NCBI GenBank assembly: GCA_023898805.1
Contig: CP060260.1
Location: 1,425,656 to 1,489,655, forward strand
Length of the DNA stretch: 64,000 bases
Origin: Rhodospirillales bacterium
GTDB lineage: Bacteria; Pseudomonadota; Alphaproteobacteria; Micavibrionales; UBA1664
Direction: 5' to 3'
The notes under the pieces are model-generated. The model was not told the DNA's origin. It did not search any database and worked only from the letters and a program-made list of their open reading frames with translations. How positions within the stretch are numbered: position 1 is the stretch's first letter; every line of letters starts with the position of its first letter. A program made the position numbers and the translations under genes. This document shows, one piece after another, positions 50,769 to 62,312 of the stretch.

Positions 50769-53720
50769 ATGACCCCTTCAGCCAACACCAGATCCCTGCT
50801 TACCGGCGTTAACGCCGAATACATCGCCCATCTTTACGCGCAATATCTTCGCGATCCGGCCTCGGTGCAGGCGGGCTGGGCATCGTTCTTCCGCGATCTT
50901 TCGGATGACGAGGTCACGCTGCTGCGCGAACTGCACGGGCCAAGCTGGGCGATGCCCGAAAATCGAAGCGAAAACCGCGGCTTCACATCGACCACGCAGG
51001 GCAACGTCACTTATATTCAGTCCGCGCCTGCGCAACAGCCTGCCCGTTTCGACCCCATGCCAGCCGCCGCACCCGTGGTCGGTTTGGACCCGGCTTCAGG
51101 GCAAATGATCGCCGCCGCCCGCGACACGTTGCGCGCGATGATGCTGATCCGCGCCTACCGCATTCGTGGCCACTTCAAGGCCGATCTCGACCCGCTGGGC
51201 CTGCGCGAGGTGCCCTCGCATCCGGAACTGGAGCCCGCCTACTGGGGGTTTACCCCGGCCGACATGGAGCGCGTGATTTTTGTCGACGGAAATCTAGGGT
51301 TCCAGCAGGCGACCTTGCGTGAGATTCTTGCCAGATTGCACGAAATTTACTGCGGCACCGTCGGCGTTGAATACATGTATGTGGCCGATCCAGAGCAGCG
51401 TTTCTGGATTCAGGATCGCCTTGAAAAACCGGAAAACAAAATCGAGTTCGACGGCAGCGCGAAAAAGAAAATTCTGGGCGATCTGACCCTGGCCGAAGGG
51501 CTTGAAAAATTCCTGCAGACCAAATTCGTCGGCACCAAGCGTTTTGGGCTTGAAGGCGGCGAAAGCATGATCGCGGCGGTCGAAGAAATTCTAGACCGTG
51601 GCTCCACGCTTGGGTTGAGCGAGGTTGTGTTCGGCATGGCGCATCGCGGCCGCCTCAATATGCTGACCAACGTCCTGGGCAAGCCATTCGTGGCGCTTCT
51701 TTCAGAATTTCAGGGCACTCCGCCCACGCCCGGCGATTTTCAGGGTTCGGGCGACGTAAAATACCATCTGGGTGCGTCCAGCGACCGGCGCTTTTCGGGC
51801 GGCACGGTGCACGTGACGCTGACCCCCAATCCCTCGCACCTCGAAGCGGTCAATCCGGTTGTGGCGGGCCGTGTGCGCGCCAAGCAGGAAATGCACAACG
51901 ACGCCGAACGTCACCGCGTGATGCCCCTGCTCATCCATGGCGATGCCGCTTTTGCCGGGCAAGGCATCGTGGCCGAAACGCTGATGATGTCGGAACTGCA
52001 CGGATACAAGGTCGGCGGCACGGTGCATGTGGTGATCAATAACCAGATCGGCTTTACCACCATGCCGTCCTATTCACGCTCCGGCCCTTACTGCACTGAT
52101 GTCGCGAAAATGCTTGCCGCGCCGATTTTTCACGTCAACGGCGACGATCCGGAGGCCGTGGTGCGTATGGCGCGCACGGCCATCGAATTCCGTCAACAGT
52201 TCAAGAAGGACGTGGTGCTGGACATTACCTGCTATCGCCGCCACGGCCATAATGAAAGCGACGAACCTGCCTTCACCCAGCCGCATATGTACAAGGTCAT
52301 CGCCGAGCTTGATACCACGCGCACCAAATACGCGAAAAGACTTGCTGCCGAAAACGCGGTGACCGAGGCGGAATCGCAGGCCATGGTGGACGAATTCCGC
52401 GCCCGCCTGGAAAAGGATTTCGAATCCGCGAAAACCTACATGCCGAACCGCGCTGATACGCTTGAGGGCATCTGGACCGGCATCGAGCAGTCGCTGGATA
52501 CGGCCGGAAGTGCGCGCCGGGCCAAGACCGCGATTTCCGCAGATGTGATGGAAATCCTGAAAAACGGGTTGACCACCGTGCCTTCGGATTTCGACATCCA
52601 TCCGAAAATCGCCCGCCAGTTGGAAGCCAAGCGCAAAATGTTTGAAACCGGCGAAGGTTTCGACTGGGGTACGGCCGAGGCCTGCGCCTTTGGCTCGCTG
52701 CTGATTGAAGGGCACAGGGTCCGCATTTCCGGGCAGGATGTGGGGCGCGGTACGTTTTCGCACCGCCACTGCATTCTTTACGATCAGACGAGCGAGAAGA
52801 AATATCACCCGCTGCGCAACCTGTCTGCGGATCAGGGAAATTTCGAGGCGTTCGACAGTCCGCTTTCCGAAAACGCGGTGCTTGGTTTCGATTACGGTTA
52901 TTCCCTTGCGGCGCCCGGCGCACTGGTGTGCTGGGAAGGGCAGTTTGGCGATTTCGTCAACGGTGCACAGGTAATGATCGACCAGTTCATCTCCTCAGCC
53001 GAAACCAAATGGCTGCGCATGTCCGGTCTTGTCATGCTGCTGCCGCACGGCATGGAAGGGCAGGGGCCGGAGCACTCATCAGCCCGCCCGGAACGCTTCC
53101 TGCAGCAAAGTGCCGAGGACAACTGGTCTGTGGTCAACATCACGACGCCGGCAAATTATTTTCATGCGCTGCGCCGCCAGTTGAATCGCAATTTCAGGAA
53201 GCCGCTGATCGTCATGTCGCCAAAATCGCTGCTGCGCCACAAGCGTGCGGTCAGCCGCATTGGCGATTTCCTTGGTGAAAGCATGTTCCACCGCGTCCTG
53301 TGGGACGAGGCCGAGGCGCAGGATCAGATCAACAAACCCCGGGACATTCGCCGCATCGTTCTGTGCAGCGGAAAGCTGTATTACGACCTGTACGAAGCGC
53401 GTGAGGCCAAGGGCATCAAGGATGTCGTGATTTTGCGTGTGGAACAACTTTACCCGTGGCCTGCTGATGCGCTGGCCGAGGAATTGAAGCGTTATCCCAA
53501 CGCGGATGTCGTCTGGTGCCAGGAAGAGCCGGGCAATCAGGGCTACTGGTCCTTCGTCGATCGCCGCATTGAAAACGTGCTTACCACTATCAAGCACAAG
53601 GCTGGTCGACCGAAATACGTCGGCAGGCCGGATGCCGCGGCCCCGGCCACCGGTTCGGCCAAGCGCCACGCGAGCGAGCAGGCTGCTTTGATCGATGCGG
53701 CGCTCTCCACCGGCGCGTGA
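50769..53720 (+). CDS. sucA: 2-oxoglutarate dehydrogenase E1 component
   Basis: 983 aa. N-terminus LLTGVNAEYIAHLYAQYLRDPASVQAGWASFF, a ThDP-binding region (HGDAAFAGQGIV) and transketolase-like domains. Confidence 0.97.
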   Translation: MTPSANTRSLLTGVNAEYIAHLYAQYLRDPASVQAGWASFFRDLSDDEVTLLRELHGPSWAMPENRSENRGFTSTTQGNVTYIQSAPAQQPARFDPMPAAAPVVGLDPASGQMIAAARDTLRAMMLIRAYRIRGHFKADLDPLGLREVPSHPELEPAYWGFTPADMERVIFVDGNLGFQQATLREILARLHEIYCGTVGVEYMYVADPEQRFWIQDRLEKPENKIEFDGSAKKKILGDLTLAEGLEKFLQTKFVGTKRFGLEGGESMIAAVEEILDRGSTLGLSEVVFGMAHRGRLNMLTNVLGKPFVALLSEFQGTPPTPGDFQGSGDVKYHLGASSDRRFSGGTVHVTLTPNPSHLEAVNPVVAGRVRAKQEMHNDAERHRVMPLLIHGDAAFAGQGIVAETLMMSELHGYKVGGTVHVVINNQIGFTTMPSYSRSGPYCTDVAKMLAAPIFHVNGDDPEAVVRMARTAIEFRQQFKKDVVLDITCYRRHGHNESDEPAFTQPHMYKVIAELDTTRTKYAKRLAAENAVTEAESQAMVDEFRARLEKDFESAKTYMPNRADTLEGIWTGIEQSLDTAGSARRAKTAISADVMEILKNGLTTVPSDFDIHPKIARQLEAKRKMFETGEGFDWGTAEACAFGSLLIEGHRVRISGQDVGRGTFSHRHCILYDQTSEKKYHPLRNLSADQGNFEAFDSPLSENAVLGFDYGYSLAAPGALVCWEGQFGDFVNGAQVMIDQFISSAETKWLRMSGLVMLLPHGMEGQGPEHSSARPERFLQQSAEDNWSVVNITTPANYFHALRRQLNRNFRKPLIVMSPKSLLRHKRAVSRIGDFLGESMFHRVLWDEAEAQDQINKPRDIRRIVLCSGKLYYDLYEAREAKGIKDVVILRVEQLYPWPADALAEELKRYPNADVVWCQEEPGNQGYWSFVDRRIENVLTTIKHKAGRPKYVGRPDAAAPATGSAKRHASEQAALIDAALSTGA

Positions 53721-55843: not shown

Positions 55844-57676
<1,833 letters not shown>

Positions 57677-57738
57677 AATTGGACTTTTTCGGAAAACCCG
57701 CATTATAACGGGCCCGAATAACAAAAAAGGAAAAAATC

Positions 57739-58044
57739 ATGGTGATGCAACGCCCTTGGCCGCAGGCACACAAGGACAGACTGGCCGAACTGGCGGACGG
57801 CACGCGCGGGAGCGTGGAAATCGCGGACGTTCTGAATCGCGCGTTCAAAACCGCGTACACGCCGAAAGCGGTTATTGGCCGGGTGCATCGCGAGAATGAA
57901 GGGCGAAAAAAGCGGGAAAAGAGCTTCTTAAATTGCCAGCCCGGGGTACCAGAACGTCTTCTGATCGCACACTGGAAAAAGACCGCGCCTCCCTCCCTAA
58001 AGGTAGGGGTGGTCGCCACAATCAGCCCGGGGCTTTCGGCTTAA
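57739..58044 (+). CDS. GcrA-like protein, N-terminal DNA-binding-domain frame (101-aa zero-frame product)
   Basis: W-x8-L..L......S..EIA..L......TPKAVIGRVHR matches the N-terminal motif of the GcrA cell-cycle regulator family. RBS aaggaaaaaa upstream of ATG 57739. Confidence 0.6.
   Translation: MVMQRPWPQAHKDRLAELADGTRGSVEIADVLNRAFKTAYTPKAVIGRVHRENEGRKKREKSFLNCQPGVPERLLIAHWKKTAPPSLKVGVVATISPGLSA
57906..57912 (+). other. In-phase A_AAA_AAG heptamer (a potential -1 ribosomal slippery site, or the site of a 1-nt indel)
   Basis: Zero-frame codons are CGA AAA AAG (R56 K57 K58). The -1 frame is open from 57900 to 58415. Confidence 0.6.
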
Positions 58045-58415
58045 GGCCCGTCAGGCAGGCACCGTACCGCGCGCCGGAAAAGCCAGAACCTGCGCCCGAG
58101 CCGGCACTTTCGGAATATGATGCGCTTGAAAAACTCGACGCCATGTTCAACTTCAACCTTTCTGCCAACGCTGTGGAAGAAGAGGATCTTTCTCACGCCG
58201 TGGCCAGCATGGGGCCGAAGCCGCCGCGTTGTCAGGAAATTCTGGGTCGCAATAATAAATGTGATATTGCAACCAAACCGGGCGTGACGCGCTGTGCCTT
58301 TCATGCCGCCGTACATCTGTTTGCGGCGCTTGGATACGGCCATGACGACATCTATGACAGCACCCCGGTCGAGGCCGAAATACGCGCCCGGTTTGCCGCC
58401 CTGAAAGCGCCCTGA
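57933..58415 (+). CDS. GcrA-like protein, C-terminal frame (-1 relative to 57739..58044)
   Basis: Pro/Ala-rich linker, then a Cys-x9-Cys-x10-Cys-x2-His cluster (RCQEILGRNNKCDIATKPGVTRCAFH) reminiscent of the GcrA C-terminal C...C...C..H region. No independent RBS/ATG (TTG start in the track). Confidence 0.45.
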   Translation: MPARGTRTSSDRTLEKDRASLPKGRGGRHNQPGAFGLRPVRQAPYRAPEKPEPAPEPALSEYDALEKLDAMFNFNLSANAVEEEDLSHAVASMGPKPPRCQEILGRNNKCDIATKPGVTRCAFHAAVHLFAALGYGHDDIYDSTPVEAEIRARFAALKAP

Positions 58416-58507
58416 ATCAGGGGAAAATTCCCTGCCGCCGCCACTTGACCGGGCGGGGATGACGTGCCAAATTCCTGCTGTCTAATCCGCAGCTTACAGG
58501 CCTTTCC

Positions 58508-59728
58508 ATGACCAGCATCATCGTCCCGTCTTTGGGTGAATCCGTTTCCGAAGCCACGATCGCCAAATGGCTGAAGAAGGAAGGTGATCCCGTCAAGCAG
58601 GACGAGCCGCTGGTCGAACTTGAAACCGACAAGGTGACGGTGGAGGTCAACAGTCCCGCTTCCGGCACGCTGGCCGTGATCGGTGCCAAGGCGGGCGAAA
58701 GCGTGAAACCGGGCGCAGTGATCGGCGATGTTGCCGCCGGTGCCGCTGCGCCAAAGGCGCAAGAAAGCAAACCTGCGCCTGAATCCCCGCAACAATCAAC
58801 CGAACGCCCCGAAGCGACACCCAAGGAACCGACACCTGGTCCTGCCGCGCGTAAAATGATGGCCGATAACAACGTGGCCGCGTCTGAAGTCGCGGGCACG
58901 GGCAGGGACGGACGTGTCACCAAGGGCGACGTGATCGCGCATCTTGAACAACCGGCTGCAAAACCGACACCGTCTGCACCGCCCGCTACGACAGCAGCAA
59001 AGTCAAATCCGCCCCGCGACCTTGGCGCGCGCGAGGAACGCGTGAAAATGACAAGGCTAAGGCAGACCATCGCCCGCCGCCTGAAGGAAGCGCAGAACAC
59101 CGCCGCGATGCTCACCACCTTCAACGAAATCGACATGACCGCGATTTTGGCGATGCGCGAGGCGTACAAGGACAAATTTGAAAAACGCTACGGCGTGAAA
59201 CTCGGCTTCATGGGGCTGTTCGTGCGCGCGGCTATCGCGGGCCTGCGCGAATTTCCGGCGGTGAATGCCGAAATCGACGGCGACGACATTATTTATAAAA
59301 ACCACTATGACATCGGCGTCGCGGTTTCGACGCCGCAGGGTCTGGTCGTGCCGGTGGTGCGTGATGCCGACGCCAAGTCGCTGGCCGATATTGAAAAGGA
59401 TATCGGCGCCTATGCCAAAAAGGCGCGCGACGGGCAACTCGCTCCCGCCGACATGATGGGCGGCACCTTTACCATCACCAATGGCGGCGTGTTCGGAAGC
59501 TTGATGTCCACGCCTATCCTCAACGCGCCGCAGGTCGGTATCCTGGGGATGCACAAAACCATGCAGCGCCCGGTGGTAATGCCCGACGGATCGATCGAGG
59601 CGCGCCCGATGATGTATGTCGCGCTGTCTTACGACCACCGCATCATCGACGGGCGCGAGGCGGTCAGTTTCCTCGTCCGCGTCAAGGAATGCCTCGAGGA
59701 CCCGCAGCGTCTGGTGCTTGAAATCTGA
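58508..59728 (+). CDS. sucB: Dihydrolipoyllysine-residue succinyltransferase (2-oxoglutarate dehydrogenase E2)
   Basis: Lipoyl domain ([12 protein letters not shown]), an Ala/Pro linker, the E3-binding segment and the catalytic DHRIIDG. Confidence 0.97.
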
Positions 59729-59733
59729 TACCG

Positions 59734-60867
59734 GACTCTAAACAAAACGATATGTCGATCGCTGCGTTAGTTCTGCATTCAGACCGGGTAACTGCGCGCG
59801 TTTGACGCGCTTCATGCGCGAATCGAAAGCGCCGTATGTATAATTGCGCAGCAGAAATGAATGGCGCAGCTCCAGATACGTGTTGATGCTCCTGCGCTGG
59901 TATGCCGATACCGGGCATGCGGTATCGACGATGTCCAGCACCCGGTCCACGATGTCGTCCGGCATGGCATCCAGCCGCCGCAACCCGTCCTCGAAAGCGC
60001 TGCGTAAAACGGGAATGCCCTCGCCAATTTCTACCGTCATCGAAGCATCTGCAACCTTTGCGTTGTAACGCATCCGGGCCATGTGCAGCATGCTTTCGGA
60101 TATTCCCTCGGGCGGATGGTTGGGGTCGATGCTGGCGGCCCTGAACGCGTCGGCAAGGCTTGTACTATCAAAATCGAATTCACAAAAACGGGTTTTTGCC
60201 GCCGCATTGAGGCATAAATTGCGCGGATCGCGGTCGGTATCCTGTCCCAACCATAACAAAAAGGGCAAGGCGGATGATGTGTGGCGCAGATAGGCGTAAG
60301 AATCCGCATAATCAAGATTGCTGGAATAGACGATGCGCTCGAACGGGACGATGCTGACCATATGAGGCAATTCCCCGGCTTCAGGCACCCGGGCCACAAA
60401 TGTTGGTGCGACAGGAACTCCGGCATATAGCGCGAGGCGCGAAACAAATAACTCCGCCTGCGCAGATGCGGGGCTTCGTAAATTTTCAATGCCCCACGCA
60501 CCCGTTGTGGATTTGTGTAGGTCGAGATCGTGCGTGACCCCATAAACATGCTGCGCGCGATGCCATTCCCCCGGCAGGAATGCGGTTTTCAACGAGTCCA
60601 TTGCCAGCGCATGCGCGGCGCGTGAAAAACTTGTCGAAATCGGGACGCTCATATCCATGCCATGGTGTTAGCATAGAGCGTAAATGTTTGTCATATTTCA
60701 ATTTCAGGCGCGATCCGTGCGGTCACGAAAACTTCCCCGTCGTCCAGCTCGAAGACGAGATGAAGAAATCCTACCTCGATTACGCGATGAGCGTGATCGT
60801 ATCCCGCGCGCTGCCCGATGCGCGGCGACGGGTTGAAGCCGGTCCATCGCCGCATCCTGTACGTGAT
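59734..60867. repeat. Segmental duplication, copy 1 (paralogue gene + shortened upstream region + gyrA 5' fragment)
   Basis: Begins with gactctaaacaaaacgatatgtcgatcgctgc (also at 60912). Ends within gyrA-homologous sequence ...catcctgtacg (also at 62298-62308). Confidence 0.9.
59738..60658 (-). CDS. Hypothetical protein, paralogue 1 of a tandem pair (306 aa)
   Basis: Long ORF in visibly AT-richer DNA. Near-identical N-terminal ~110 aa and a shared internal block ([49 protein letters not shown]) with 60916..61908. Confidence 0.65.
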
Positions 60868-60911: not shown

Positions 60912-62312
60912 GACTCTAAACAAAACGATATGTCGATCGCTGCCTTGGTTTTGCGTCCCGACTGGTTGACCGCGCGCTTCCGATCATCTGCGGATTGGAA
61001 CCACCCAATTTATAATGGATCGCCAATTCTGCGTTCAGACCGGGTGACCGTGCGCTTTCGATCATCTGCGGCTCGAAAACTCCAAGTTCATAATGGAGCG
61101 CCAGAAGTGAGCGGCGCTCCTCCAGATACGTGTTGATGCTCCTGCGCTGGTATGCCGATACCGGGCACGCGGTATCGACGATGTCCAGCACCCGGTCGAC
61201 GATATCGTCCGGCATGGCATCCAGCCGCCGCAACCCGTCCTCGAAAGCGCTGCGTAAAACGGGAATGCCATTTAAAATGGTCACATACACCGCAGCCCTT
61301 TTGACGTTTCTAAAGTAATGATTCTGGACTGCATCCAGCGTGCTTTGGGATATCCCCTCGGGTGGGTGGCTAGGGTCTATGCTGGAGGCCAAGAATGCGT
61401 CGGCAAGGCTTGTCTCGCCGAAATTGAATTCACAAAAACGGGTTTTTGCCGCCGCATTGAGGTATAAATTGTGCGGATCGCGTTTATTATACTGTCCCAA
61501 CCATAACAAAAAGGGCAAAGCAAATGATTCGTGGCGCAGATAGGCGCGATTATAGTCATAATCAAGATCACCGGAATAGACGATGCGCTCGAACGGGACG
61601 ATGCTGACCATATGAGGCAATTCCCCGGCTTCAGGCACCCGGGCCACAAATGTTGGTGCGACAGGAACCCCGGCATATAGAGCGAGGCGTGAAACAAATA
61701 ACTCCGCCTGCGCAGATGCGGGGCTTCGTAAATTTTCAATGCCCCACGCACCCGTTGTGGATTTGTGTAGGTCGAGATCGTGCGTGACCCCATAAACATG
61801 CTGCGTGCGATGCCATTCCCCCGGCAGGAATGCGGTTTTCAACGAGTCCATTGCCAGCGCATGCGCGGCGTGTGAAAAGCTTGTCGAAAGCGGGGTATCC
61901 ATATCCATGCCACGGTATTAGCACAAGATATAGGCATTTGCCATATTTAAATTGCGCATGCTGTCCGGCCGGTCGTGAAAACAGGCCCGCACGCTACACG
62001 AAGCAGAAAAACAGAAAACACATTAAAATCAGCATGTTAAAAACGAAAATTCAGTATAAAAATTCTTGGTTTTCCGCAGCGTTTGGGCTAGGTTTGACGC
62101 GATGATTTCAGCCATAAAACGGACCCTGCCATGAGCGCAAAAAACACCCCGGCGCAAACCCCGCCTTCGGGCGAAAACTTCCCCGTCGTCCAGCTCGAAG
62201 ACGAGATGAAGAAATCCTATCTCGATTACGCGATGAGCGTGATTGTATCCCGCGCGCTGCCCGATGCGCGGGACGGGTTGAAGCCGGTCCATCGCCGCAT
62301 CCTGTACGCGAT
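60912..62312. repeat. Segmental duplication, copy 2 (paralogue gene + full gyrA upstream region + gyrA 5' end)
   Basis: Collinear with 59734..60867, except for about 196 nt (61983..62178) absent from copy 1 and an extra 78-bp internal repeat unit. Confidence 0.9.
60916..61908 (-). CDS. Hypothetical protein, paralogue 2 of a tandem pair (330 aa)
   Basis: See paralogue 1. The C-terminus contains an imperfect 26-aa internal repeat (HYELGVFEPQMIESARS... / HYKLGGSNPQMIGSARS...), encoded at 60968-61019 and 61046-61097. Confidence 0.65.
   Translation of the reverse strand: MDMDTPLSTSFSHAAHALAMDSLKTAFLPGEWHRTQHVYGVTHDLDLHKSTTGAWGIENLRSPASAQAELFVSRLALYAGVPVAPTFVARVPEAGELPHMVSIVPFERIVYSGDLDYDYNRAYLRHESFALPFLLWLGQYNKRDPHNLYLNAAAKTRFCEFNFGETSLADAFLASSIDPSHPPEGISQSTLDAVQNHYFRNVKRAAVYVTILNGIPVLRSAFEDGLRRLDAMPDDIVDRVLDIVDTACPVSAYQRRSINTYLEERRSLLALHYELGVFEPQMIESARSPGLNAELAIHYKLGGSNPQMIGSARSTSRDAKPRQRSTYRFV

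Follow-up and report, generated by a model that had tools for sequence, protein, structure and literature searches.

A_AAA_AAG is the heptamer at which the Escherichia coli gene dnaX undergoes programmed -1 frameshifting, with an AGGGAG element 10 nt upstream of it and a stem-loop about 6 nt downstream. It is among the most slippery heptamers in E. coli (PMC4066793, PMC5009743), where its high shiftiness depends on a single tRNA-Lys (PMC5009743), and heptamers without stimulators reach at most about ten times a background of 0.055 % in that species (PMC4066793). Stimulation of -1 shifting by Shine-Dalgarno (SD)-like elements is reported at spacings of 6-17 nt (PMC4066793). The same heptamer lies in phase within a GcrA-like gene at positions 57739-58415 of a stretch of 64,000 nt (the window) from a Rhodospirillales bacterium (assembly GCA_023898805.1, contig CP060260.1, positions 1,425,656 to 1,489,655 of the forward strand). 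An initial annotation, made from the letters alone, had the gene split exactly at this heptamer, and offered programmed frameshifting, a one-base deletion or a sequencing error as the reason. We conclude that the frame break is genuine and, in this strain, fixed, and that it lies in a gene with two domains, a helix-turn-helix and a Cys3-His domain joined by a basic disordered linker. The explanation that we favour, with about as much confidence as doubt, is a lineage-specific one-base deletion within a homopolymer run of a once in-frame gene, which would leave a product with the DNA-binding domain only and at most traces of the full-length protein.

A two-domain gene divided between two reading frames

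The features that define the gene are the following, in window positions.

57739-58044, + strand: frame-0 open reading frame (ORF) of 101 amino acids (aa), with an ATG start; public gene call MCB9986219.1 / USO07225.1
57757-57909, + strand: GcrA-type helix-turn-helix DNA-binding domain, aa 7-57, assigned by homology and of typical codon usage
57897-57899, + strand: TGA that closes the -1 frame just upstream of the A-run
57906-57912, + strand: in-phase A_AAA_AAG (X_XXY_YYZ), A6 at 57906-57911 and then G; candidate junction or slip site 1
57912-58041, + strand: overlap in which frames 0 and -1 are both open, with atypical synonymous codon usage in either frame
57933-57935, + strand: TTG, the sole -1-frame start codon upstream of the conserved C-terminal domain, and the last Leu of an LLKL motif common with the homologue P0012
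58047-58406, + strand: C-terminal domain, read in frame -1, whose homologues are stand-alone proteins of 115-148 aa
58143-58415, + strand: public 90-aa gene call MCB9986218.1, with an ATG inside the conserved first helix and no SD-like element

Frame 0 runs from ATG 57739-57741, behind an SD-like AAGGA (-5.6 kcal/mol), to TAA 58042-58044 (101 codons, containing ...TPKAVIGRVHRENEGRKKREKS...), and its codon 56 is the CGA at 57904. The -1 frame is open from 57900, 7 nt upstream of A_AAA_AAG, to TGA 58413-58415 (172 codons), and encodes a basic, Pro/Ala-rich linker followed by the cluster C-x9-C-x10-C-x2-H. The codons CGA AAA AAG at 57904-57912 place the heptamer in the X_XXY_YYZ phase. Either an A7 tract or a -1 slip at the A-run gives a product of 225 aa, whose junction is NEGRKKAGKELLK (junction peptide GRKKAGKELLK); with one extra A there is a single 225-aa ORF. 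In all of this, from the limits of the two frames to the Cys/His cluster and the length of the slip product, the initial annotation was accurate. A promoter-like sequence, TTGGAC-17-ATTATA, lies at 57679-57707, upstream of the N-terminal ORF, where relatives have a stronger box of the TTGAC(A/C) type, and a 224-codon antisense ORF at 57345-58019 (- strand) spans the N-terminal half of the locus; since the homology sits on the + strand, we take the latter to be a shadow ORF of a G+C-rich region.

That the two frames together represent one gene, as had been proposed, is borne out by P0012, a protein of 233 aa encoded by a single ORF at the same locus in an Alphaproteobacteria metagenome-assembled genome (MAG) and in a root metagenome, and the sole other fused homologue in our searches. 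Among 1.84 billion representative proteins, searched exhaustively with HMMER, there were only 15 hits, and word-index searches together with genome, metagenome and viral scans found no closer relative of the N-terminal ORF. The scans made with alignments A2 and A3 returned only the contig of P0012 itself, and alignment A1 was too divergent for search patterns; with the fused protein as query, a word-index search of proteins gave no match, not even to the two products of the window, which was judged to be a limit of the tool's sensitivity, and it was the HMMER search that proved informative. At the position of the A-run P0012 reads AAT AAA AAA TTG in frame (Lys-Lys). A check of orthologues for a conserved heptamer or split, which the initial annotation had suggested, therefore gave no evidence of conservation, the only fused homologue being in frame and the split being seen in no other organism in these searches.

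The order dapB, MsbA-like ABC transporter gene, C-domain gene (X), sucB is common to the window, L009, L010, L011-13, L007/L008 and the contig of P0006, and the C-terminal domain is encoded between the ABC transporter gene and sucB in all five of the five relatives examined. In four contexts the start of a stand-alone X lies within about 35 nt of where the upstream gene ends, so that an N-terminal domain would not fit in; in L009, L010 and L011-13 this upstream gene was identified by tblastn as the ABC transporter gene. L007/L008 is the only other genome with a fused gene, and there the C-domain genes are in tandem (L008 66-461 and 458-1159, and likewise L007), a 131-aa stand-alone paralogue being followed by the 233-aa fused protein with a 4-nt overlap.

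By homology the N-terminal half is a GcrA-type helix-turn-helix. Its best matches, P0013-15, are 36-56 % identical to it and score above the Pfam GcrA threshold, and a profile of the domain matches the solved GcrA DNA-binding domain (5yiu/5z7i; E-value 1.7e-5), a value that is partly circular since the profile includes genuine GcrA proteins; on these two grounds the assignment made in the initial annotation stands. All of the residues invariant in the family are retained (W7, L18, F36, Y40, I46, G47 and R51). The window protein itself scores 13.8-14.3 bits against PF07750 (GcrA) versus a gathering threshold of 26.9 (E-value 0.05-0.08), the match being restricted to its N-terminal part.

The C-terminal half had been described as resembling the C-terminal region of GcrA, and here our results differ. 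None of 11 family members has Pfam coverage in this half, alignment by hhalign of the domain with a genuine GcrA protein gave a probability of 0.4 % over 8 columns only, and a Foldseek search of the PDB with it found no significant match. The domain is not detectably GcrA and belongs to a separate, unannotated Cys3-His family whose members usually stand alone (P0003-P0011 and P0016, 115-148 aa). It matches P0003-P0011 with E-values of 3.6e-15 to 7.4e-6, and has the family pattern C-x(5-11)-C-x(10-13)-C-x2-H together with a helix at the N-terminus that is conserved and the ...ALK helix at the C-terminus; the invariant residues are encoded at 58230-58232 (Cys), 58260-58262 (Cys), 58293-58295 (Cys) and 58302-58304 (His), corresponding to C165, C175, C186 and H189, and AlphaFold models the domain with a predicted local distance difference test score (pLDDT) above 90. 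A promoter-like TTGTCA-16-AATAAT occurs inside this domain at 58229-58256. We note also that several stand-alone proteins (L008 66-161; P0003, P0004 and P0007) carry RVHG or TREVVGRVHK near the N-terminus, which resembles AVIGRVHR, the end of the GcrA recognition helix in the window. These motifs may be the vestige of a lost helix-turn-helix, the family having descended from a GcrA-like two-domain ancestor, although the tblastn E-value is only 0.11.

The break is not readily attributed to error. The 677-nt region, including A6, is identical in an NCBI MAG of a Rhodospirillales bacterium (GCA_020638235.1, contig JACKIY010000001.1), in a MEGAHIT assembly from ENA (ERZ27309208) and in one from Logan (SRR23493592); over lengths of up to 9.2 kb, six assemblies match the window with 100 % identity, and the two split proteins are annotated on a 1.94-Mb contig too. 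The occurrence of the same A6 in three assemblies makes a random homopolymer sequencing error, the third reason offered in the initial annotation, unlikely. A search of the literature on the assembly and run accessions found nothing useful.

The candidate deletion and the position of the frame change

Both frames are open across 57900-58041, so the frame could change anywhere in that interval, and the features below lie near its downstream end.

57981-58014, + strand: compact RNA hairpin of -19.8 kcal/mol, with the anti-SD-like 5' arm CCUCCCUCCCU and the SD-like 3' arm AGGGGUGGUC
58004-58014, + strand: strong SD-like element GGGGUGGUC, -15.4 kcal/mol against GAUCACCUCCUUA (3' end of 16S rRNA), ending 11 nt before C_CCG_GGG
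58026-58032, + strand: in-phase C_CCG_GGG in a C3G4 run; candidate junction or slip site 2, indicated by coding statistics and by the starts of orthologues

In the explanation that we favour, one base would have been lost from an in-frame ancestor, either from an A7 tract to give the A6 at 57906-57911, or from a run with G5 or C4 to give the C3G4 at 58026-58032. Ordinary translation from ATG 57739 would then yield the 101-aa protein with the DNA-binding domain only. The C-terminal domain has no start codon where the stand-alone orthologues begin, and hence could be made only by -1 slippage, presumably rare, at an in-phase heptamer or by initiation at TTG 57933. What we infer here is the in-frame ancestor, the deletion as the cause of the break and the amount of C-terminal domain still made. 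A homopolymer indel is supported by the occurrence of the two-domain P0012 as a single ORF in the same ABC transporter ... sucB locus, by the A6 and C3G4 runs in the overlap, and by the restoration of one ORF with A7. Of programmed frameshifting and deletion, both of them candidates in the initial annotation, the evidence leans to the second: P0012 is in frame, the A-run has no downstream structure, and the GAAGGG upstream of it is weak and too close.

Several observations weigh on the other side. The C-terminal domain shows no decay, all of its invariant and nearly invariant residues being intact and no further stops being present, and so either the break is recent or the domain is still expressed; its presence at the locus in all five relatives means that loss of its expression might be costly. 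The strong SD-like element stands at a dnaX-like spacing from the second heptamer, which under a plain deletion would be a coincidence, and the atypical codon usage of the overlap, present in either frame, accords with dual coding no less well than with a recent deletion. The assemblies, moreover, all represent one strain and are 100 % identical, and are thus silent on the age of the break and on polymorphism. Since the domain is intact and is encoded at the locus in all five relatives examined, and since no start codon stands at the ancestral position, it is likely to be expressed by one route or another.

The -1 frame had been described as having neither an ATG nor a ribosome-binding site of its own. 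Two start codons are in fact present, TTG 57933, with a weak SD-like GAG 9 nt upstream (-4.3 kcal/mol, a value equalled by 22 % of random start codons), and ATG 58143, which does lack an SD-like element. ATG 58143 is probably not the real start of the C-terminal domain: its SD score is +0.4 kcal/mol, and initiation there drops the nearly invariant A129 and L133 and cuts a conserved helix.

The initial annotation placed the junction at the A-run, and our evidence on this point is divided. A 3-periodic second-order Markov model was trained on 34 genes of the window and chose the right frame in 278 of 284 held-out windows of 43 codons; in the overlap it favours frame 0 over frame -1 by 8.9 nats, and by maximum likelihood it sets the change at 58034 (3-nat support 58012-58099), with 57911 worse as a site by 11 nats. 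About 7 of the 11 nats in favour of frame 0 stem from an arm of the hairpin, so that the statistic may be confounded. In codon simulations conditioned on the peptide and using genome codon usage, the -1 frame reached the observed score in none of 20,000 trials, and frame 0 did reach it. The synonymous codon z values are -3.3 for frame 0 and -4.7 for frame -1 in the overlap, and -0.2 in the N-terminal domain; GC3 (the G+C content of third codon positions) and simple codon log-odds were uninformative in the overlap.

On the side of the A-run, ELLKLP of the -1 frame matches the LLKL of P0012 at an equal ungapped distance from the helix-turn-helix, and AlphaFold models residues 61-70, which include ELLKLP, as part of the N-terminal domain (pLDDT 85). 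The -1 linker is basic and hydrophilic, like those of P0012 and GcrA. The frame-0 tail is without a homologue and comes out as disordered in the model (pLDDT 44-51). Shuffling gave no significant similarity between the P0012 linker and either frame of the overlap (p 0.41 and 0.77), and the LLKL match alone therefore does not decide where the junction lies; comparing the two possible fusions by AlphaFold is itself confounded, since the alignments differ and confidence fell even for residues common to both. In sum, the coding statistics favour a change near 58012-58041, the A-run has mild support from the LLKL match and from the AlphaFold model, and both are candidate junctions.

Alternative explanations

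One alternative dispenses with frameshifting altogether, the locus consisting of two overlapping genes, one for the 101-aa helix-turn-helix protein and one for a 160-aa C-domain protein initiated at TTG 57933 (N-terminus MPARGTR). We consider this arrangement unlikely. It accords with the stand-alone nature of the C-terminal domain in nearly all relatives and with the close spacing of X to the upstream gene in four contexts; the TTG has a weak SD-like GAG before it, genes here often lack strong SD elements, and atypical synonymous codons in both frames of the overlap are what dual coding predicts. An out-of-frame overlap of 112 nt is unusual for bacterial genes, however, the SD value of this TTG is one that many random start codons attain, the TTG corresponds to an internal conserved Leu in the fused homologue, and the N-terminal extension that it would provide exceeds that of any stand-alone relative.

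Programmed frameshifting at one or other of the two heptamers would likewise be improbable on the whole. At the A-run, mostly the 101-aa protein would be made, with a set fraction of the 225-aa two-domain protein, a possibility that we regard as very doubtful even though the heptamer is perfect and in phase, with the -1 frame opening just ahead of it, and even though the P0012 match, the confident modelling of the N-terminal domain through ELLKLP and the character of the -1 linker all suit a junction there. The phase is not independent evidence for programming, because the loss of one base from CGA AAA AAA GCG makes the in-phase heptamer automatically. Nor is the heptamer by itself rare. Elsewhere in the window there are one A_AAA_AAG and three A_AAA_AAC heptamers in phase (13,171 ordinary codons), and runs of A6/T6 or longer number 48 in 64 kb.

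The stimulators that programming would call for are not seen at this site. Downstream RNA (57880-58000 and 57913-57990) folds worse than shuffled sequence (z +2.1 and +2.0) and holds no stimulatory structure, as the initial annotation had also noted, and the hairpin at 57981-58014, considered as a downstream stimulator of the A-run, was rejected since it begins 68 nt away. The purine-rich GAAGGG that had been pointed out upstream is indeed present at 57898-57903, but at -4.6 kcal/mol it is equalled by 24 % of windows, and it ends 2 nt before the heptamer, outside the 6-17 nt at which stimulation is reported (PMC4066793). P0012, the one fused homologue, is in frame, the similarity of its linker is not significant alone, and the coding statistics place the change near 58034. 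The shiftiness of A_AAA_AAG in E. coli is tied, furthermore, to the possession of just one tRNA-Lys (PMC5009743). In the window Lys is encoded more often by AAG than by AAA (305 versus 236), and the one tRNA gene is for Val. Most alphaproteobacteria carry tRNA-Lys(CUU) too.

At C_CCG_GGG 58026-58032, GGGGUGGUC would pair with the 3' end of 16S rRNA and programmed slippage would give a 225-aa protein with the frame-0 linker (KVGVVATISPG followed by AFGLRPV; junction peptide ATISPGAFGLRPV); under this explanation GGGGUGGUC may be the former ribosome-binding site of a once separate C-domain gene. This too we think very doubtful. The change point at 58034 is close by, the simulations fit frame 0 and never -1, the heptamer lies 3 codons upstream of the frame-0 stop, and MANFRIP, the start of a stand-alone orthologue, aligns with PGAFGLRP at the heptamer. 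The SD-like element is strong and, at 11 nt, within the 6-17 nt stimulatory range (PMC4066793); the motifs AGGKG and GGNGG occur in it, it is also the 3' arm of the hairpin, and only 21 sites of -13 kcal/mol or better occur in the 64 kb of this strand. The hairpin folds better than every one of 200 shuffles; it is in the top 0.46 % of 36-nt windows, not extraordinary for a region of 132 nt, and is not repeated elsewhere in the window. It lies upstream of the second heptamer, however, and the RNA that follows either heptamer shows no advantage in folding over shuffled sequence (z +1.1 to +2.1), so that this site as well has no downstream structure. In E. coli C_CC.G_GG.C and C_CC.G_GG.U are described as shifting poorly, and the efficient motifs do not include C_CC.G_GG.G (PMC4066793). 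The frame-0 tail lacks a homologue, is disordered in the model and is atypical in codon usage; most of the statistical preference comes from the hairpin arm, the site was found post hoc, and there is no evidence of its conservation.

Least credible, and in our view highly improbable, is a sequencing or assembly error in a homopolymer or phase variation by A-tract length, since for all that the break lies in or near homopolymer runs, the A6 sequence and the split proteins recur unchanged in the assemblies described above, and A6 is short for phase variation.

Surrounding locus and comparison with known systems

In the window sucA (50769-53720) and sucB (58508-59728) are about 4.8 kb apart, and between them are dapA, dapB, a GNAT acetyltransferase gene on the opposite strand, the MsbA-like ABC transporter gene and the split gene; the order dapB, ABC transporter, X, sucB recurs in L011. 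A -35 box of the TTGAC(A/C) type follows the stop of the ABC transporter gene in relatives (L010 ~330-366, L011 ~2470-2500, L008 ~25-65), some 30 nt ahead of the ATG with which the C-domain gene begins, which suggests that this gene is served in these relatives by a promoter of its own and has a very short leader. A conserved CTTGACC (window 58444-58450, L008 ~1195-1201, L009 ~605-611), possibly the sucB promoter, lies in the spacer that separates the C-domain gene from sucB. Directly downstream of sucB are two tandem paralogues (59738-60658 and 60916-61908, - strand) of 306 and 330 aa, with about 87 % DNA identity and no Pfam hit, each followed by a 142-nt segment (60726-60867 and 62172-62312) that is 97 % identical between the copies.

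If a deletion is all that has occurred, this is an ordinary split gene whose value lies mainly in annotation: the 90-aa public call begins inside a conserved helix, and the two calls are one ancestral gene. The C-terminal half defines an unannotated Cys3-His family encoded next to sucB in a group of alphaproteobacteria. Were frameshifting to prove true, the locus would be a rare non-mobile bacterial gene with -1 frameshifting, a GcrA-related regulator having isoforms with and without an effector domain, and if the second site were the one used, the frameshift signal would have evolved from the translational coupling of two adjacent genes.

In domain plan the gene product is similar to GcrA (PF07750; PDB 5yiu, 5z7i and 7ye1). 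The N-terminal helix-turn-helix is homologous (W...L...IGRVHR), and both proteins consist of a DNA-binding domain, a basic linker and a C-terminal domain containing Cys and His, although the window protein falls below the Pfam threshold and its C-terminal domain has no detectable similarity to the C-terminus of GcrA. With E. coli dnaX the locus has in common the identical in-phase A_AAA_AAG and two possible products with a common N-terminus; the A-run here has, however, neither the SD-like element nor the stem-loop of dnaX, the shifted product of dnaX is the shorter one and here would be the longer, and frameshifting in dnaX is conserved among relatives whereas the only fused homologue of the present gene is in frame.

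In the IS3/IS911 OrfA/OrfAB system, too, frame 0 gives a product with the helix-turn-helix only, and a -1 slip at A_AAA_AAG gives a fusion. The present gene has no transposase domain, nothing here points to a mobile element, and the site is a conserved chromosomal one between the ABC transporter gene and sucB; it is conceivable, if unlikely, that a selected -1 frameshift in a chromosomal regulator gene sets the ratio of the DNA-binding-domain-only form to the full-length form, by analogy with OrfA and OrfAB of IS3. The favoured deletion finds its parallel in the split genes carrying 'savior' indels (PMC5009743), in which a one-base indel in a homopolymer leaves a slippery sequence and a trace of full-length product is possible, with the differences that the present case is known from its sequence alone and that its downstream domain could also start at TTG 57933.

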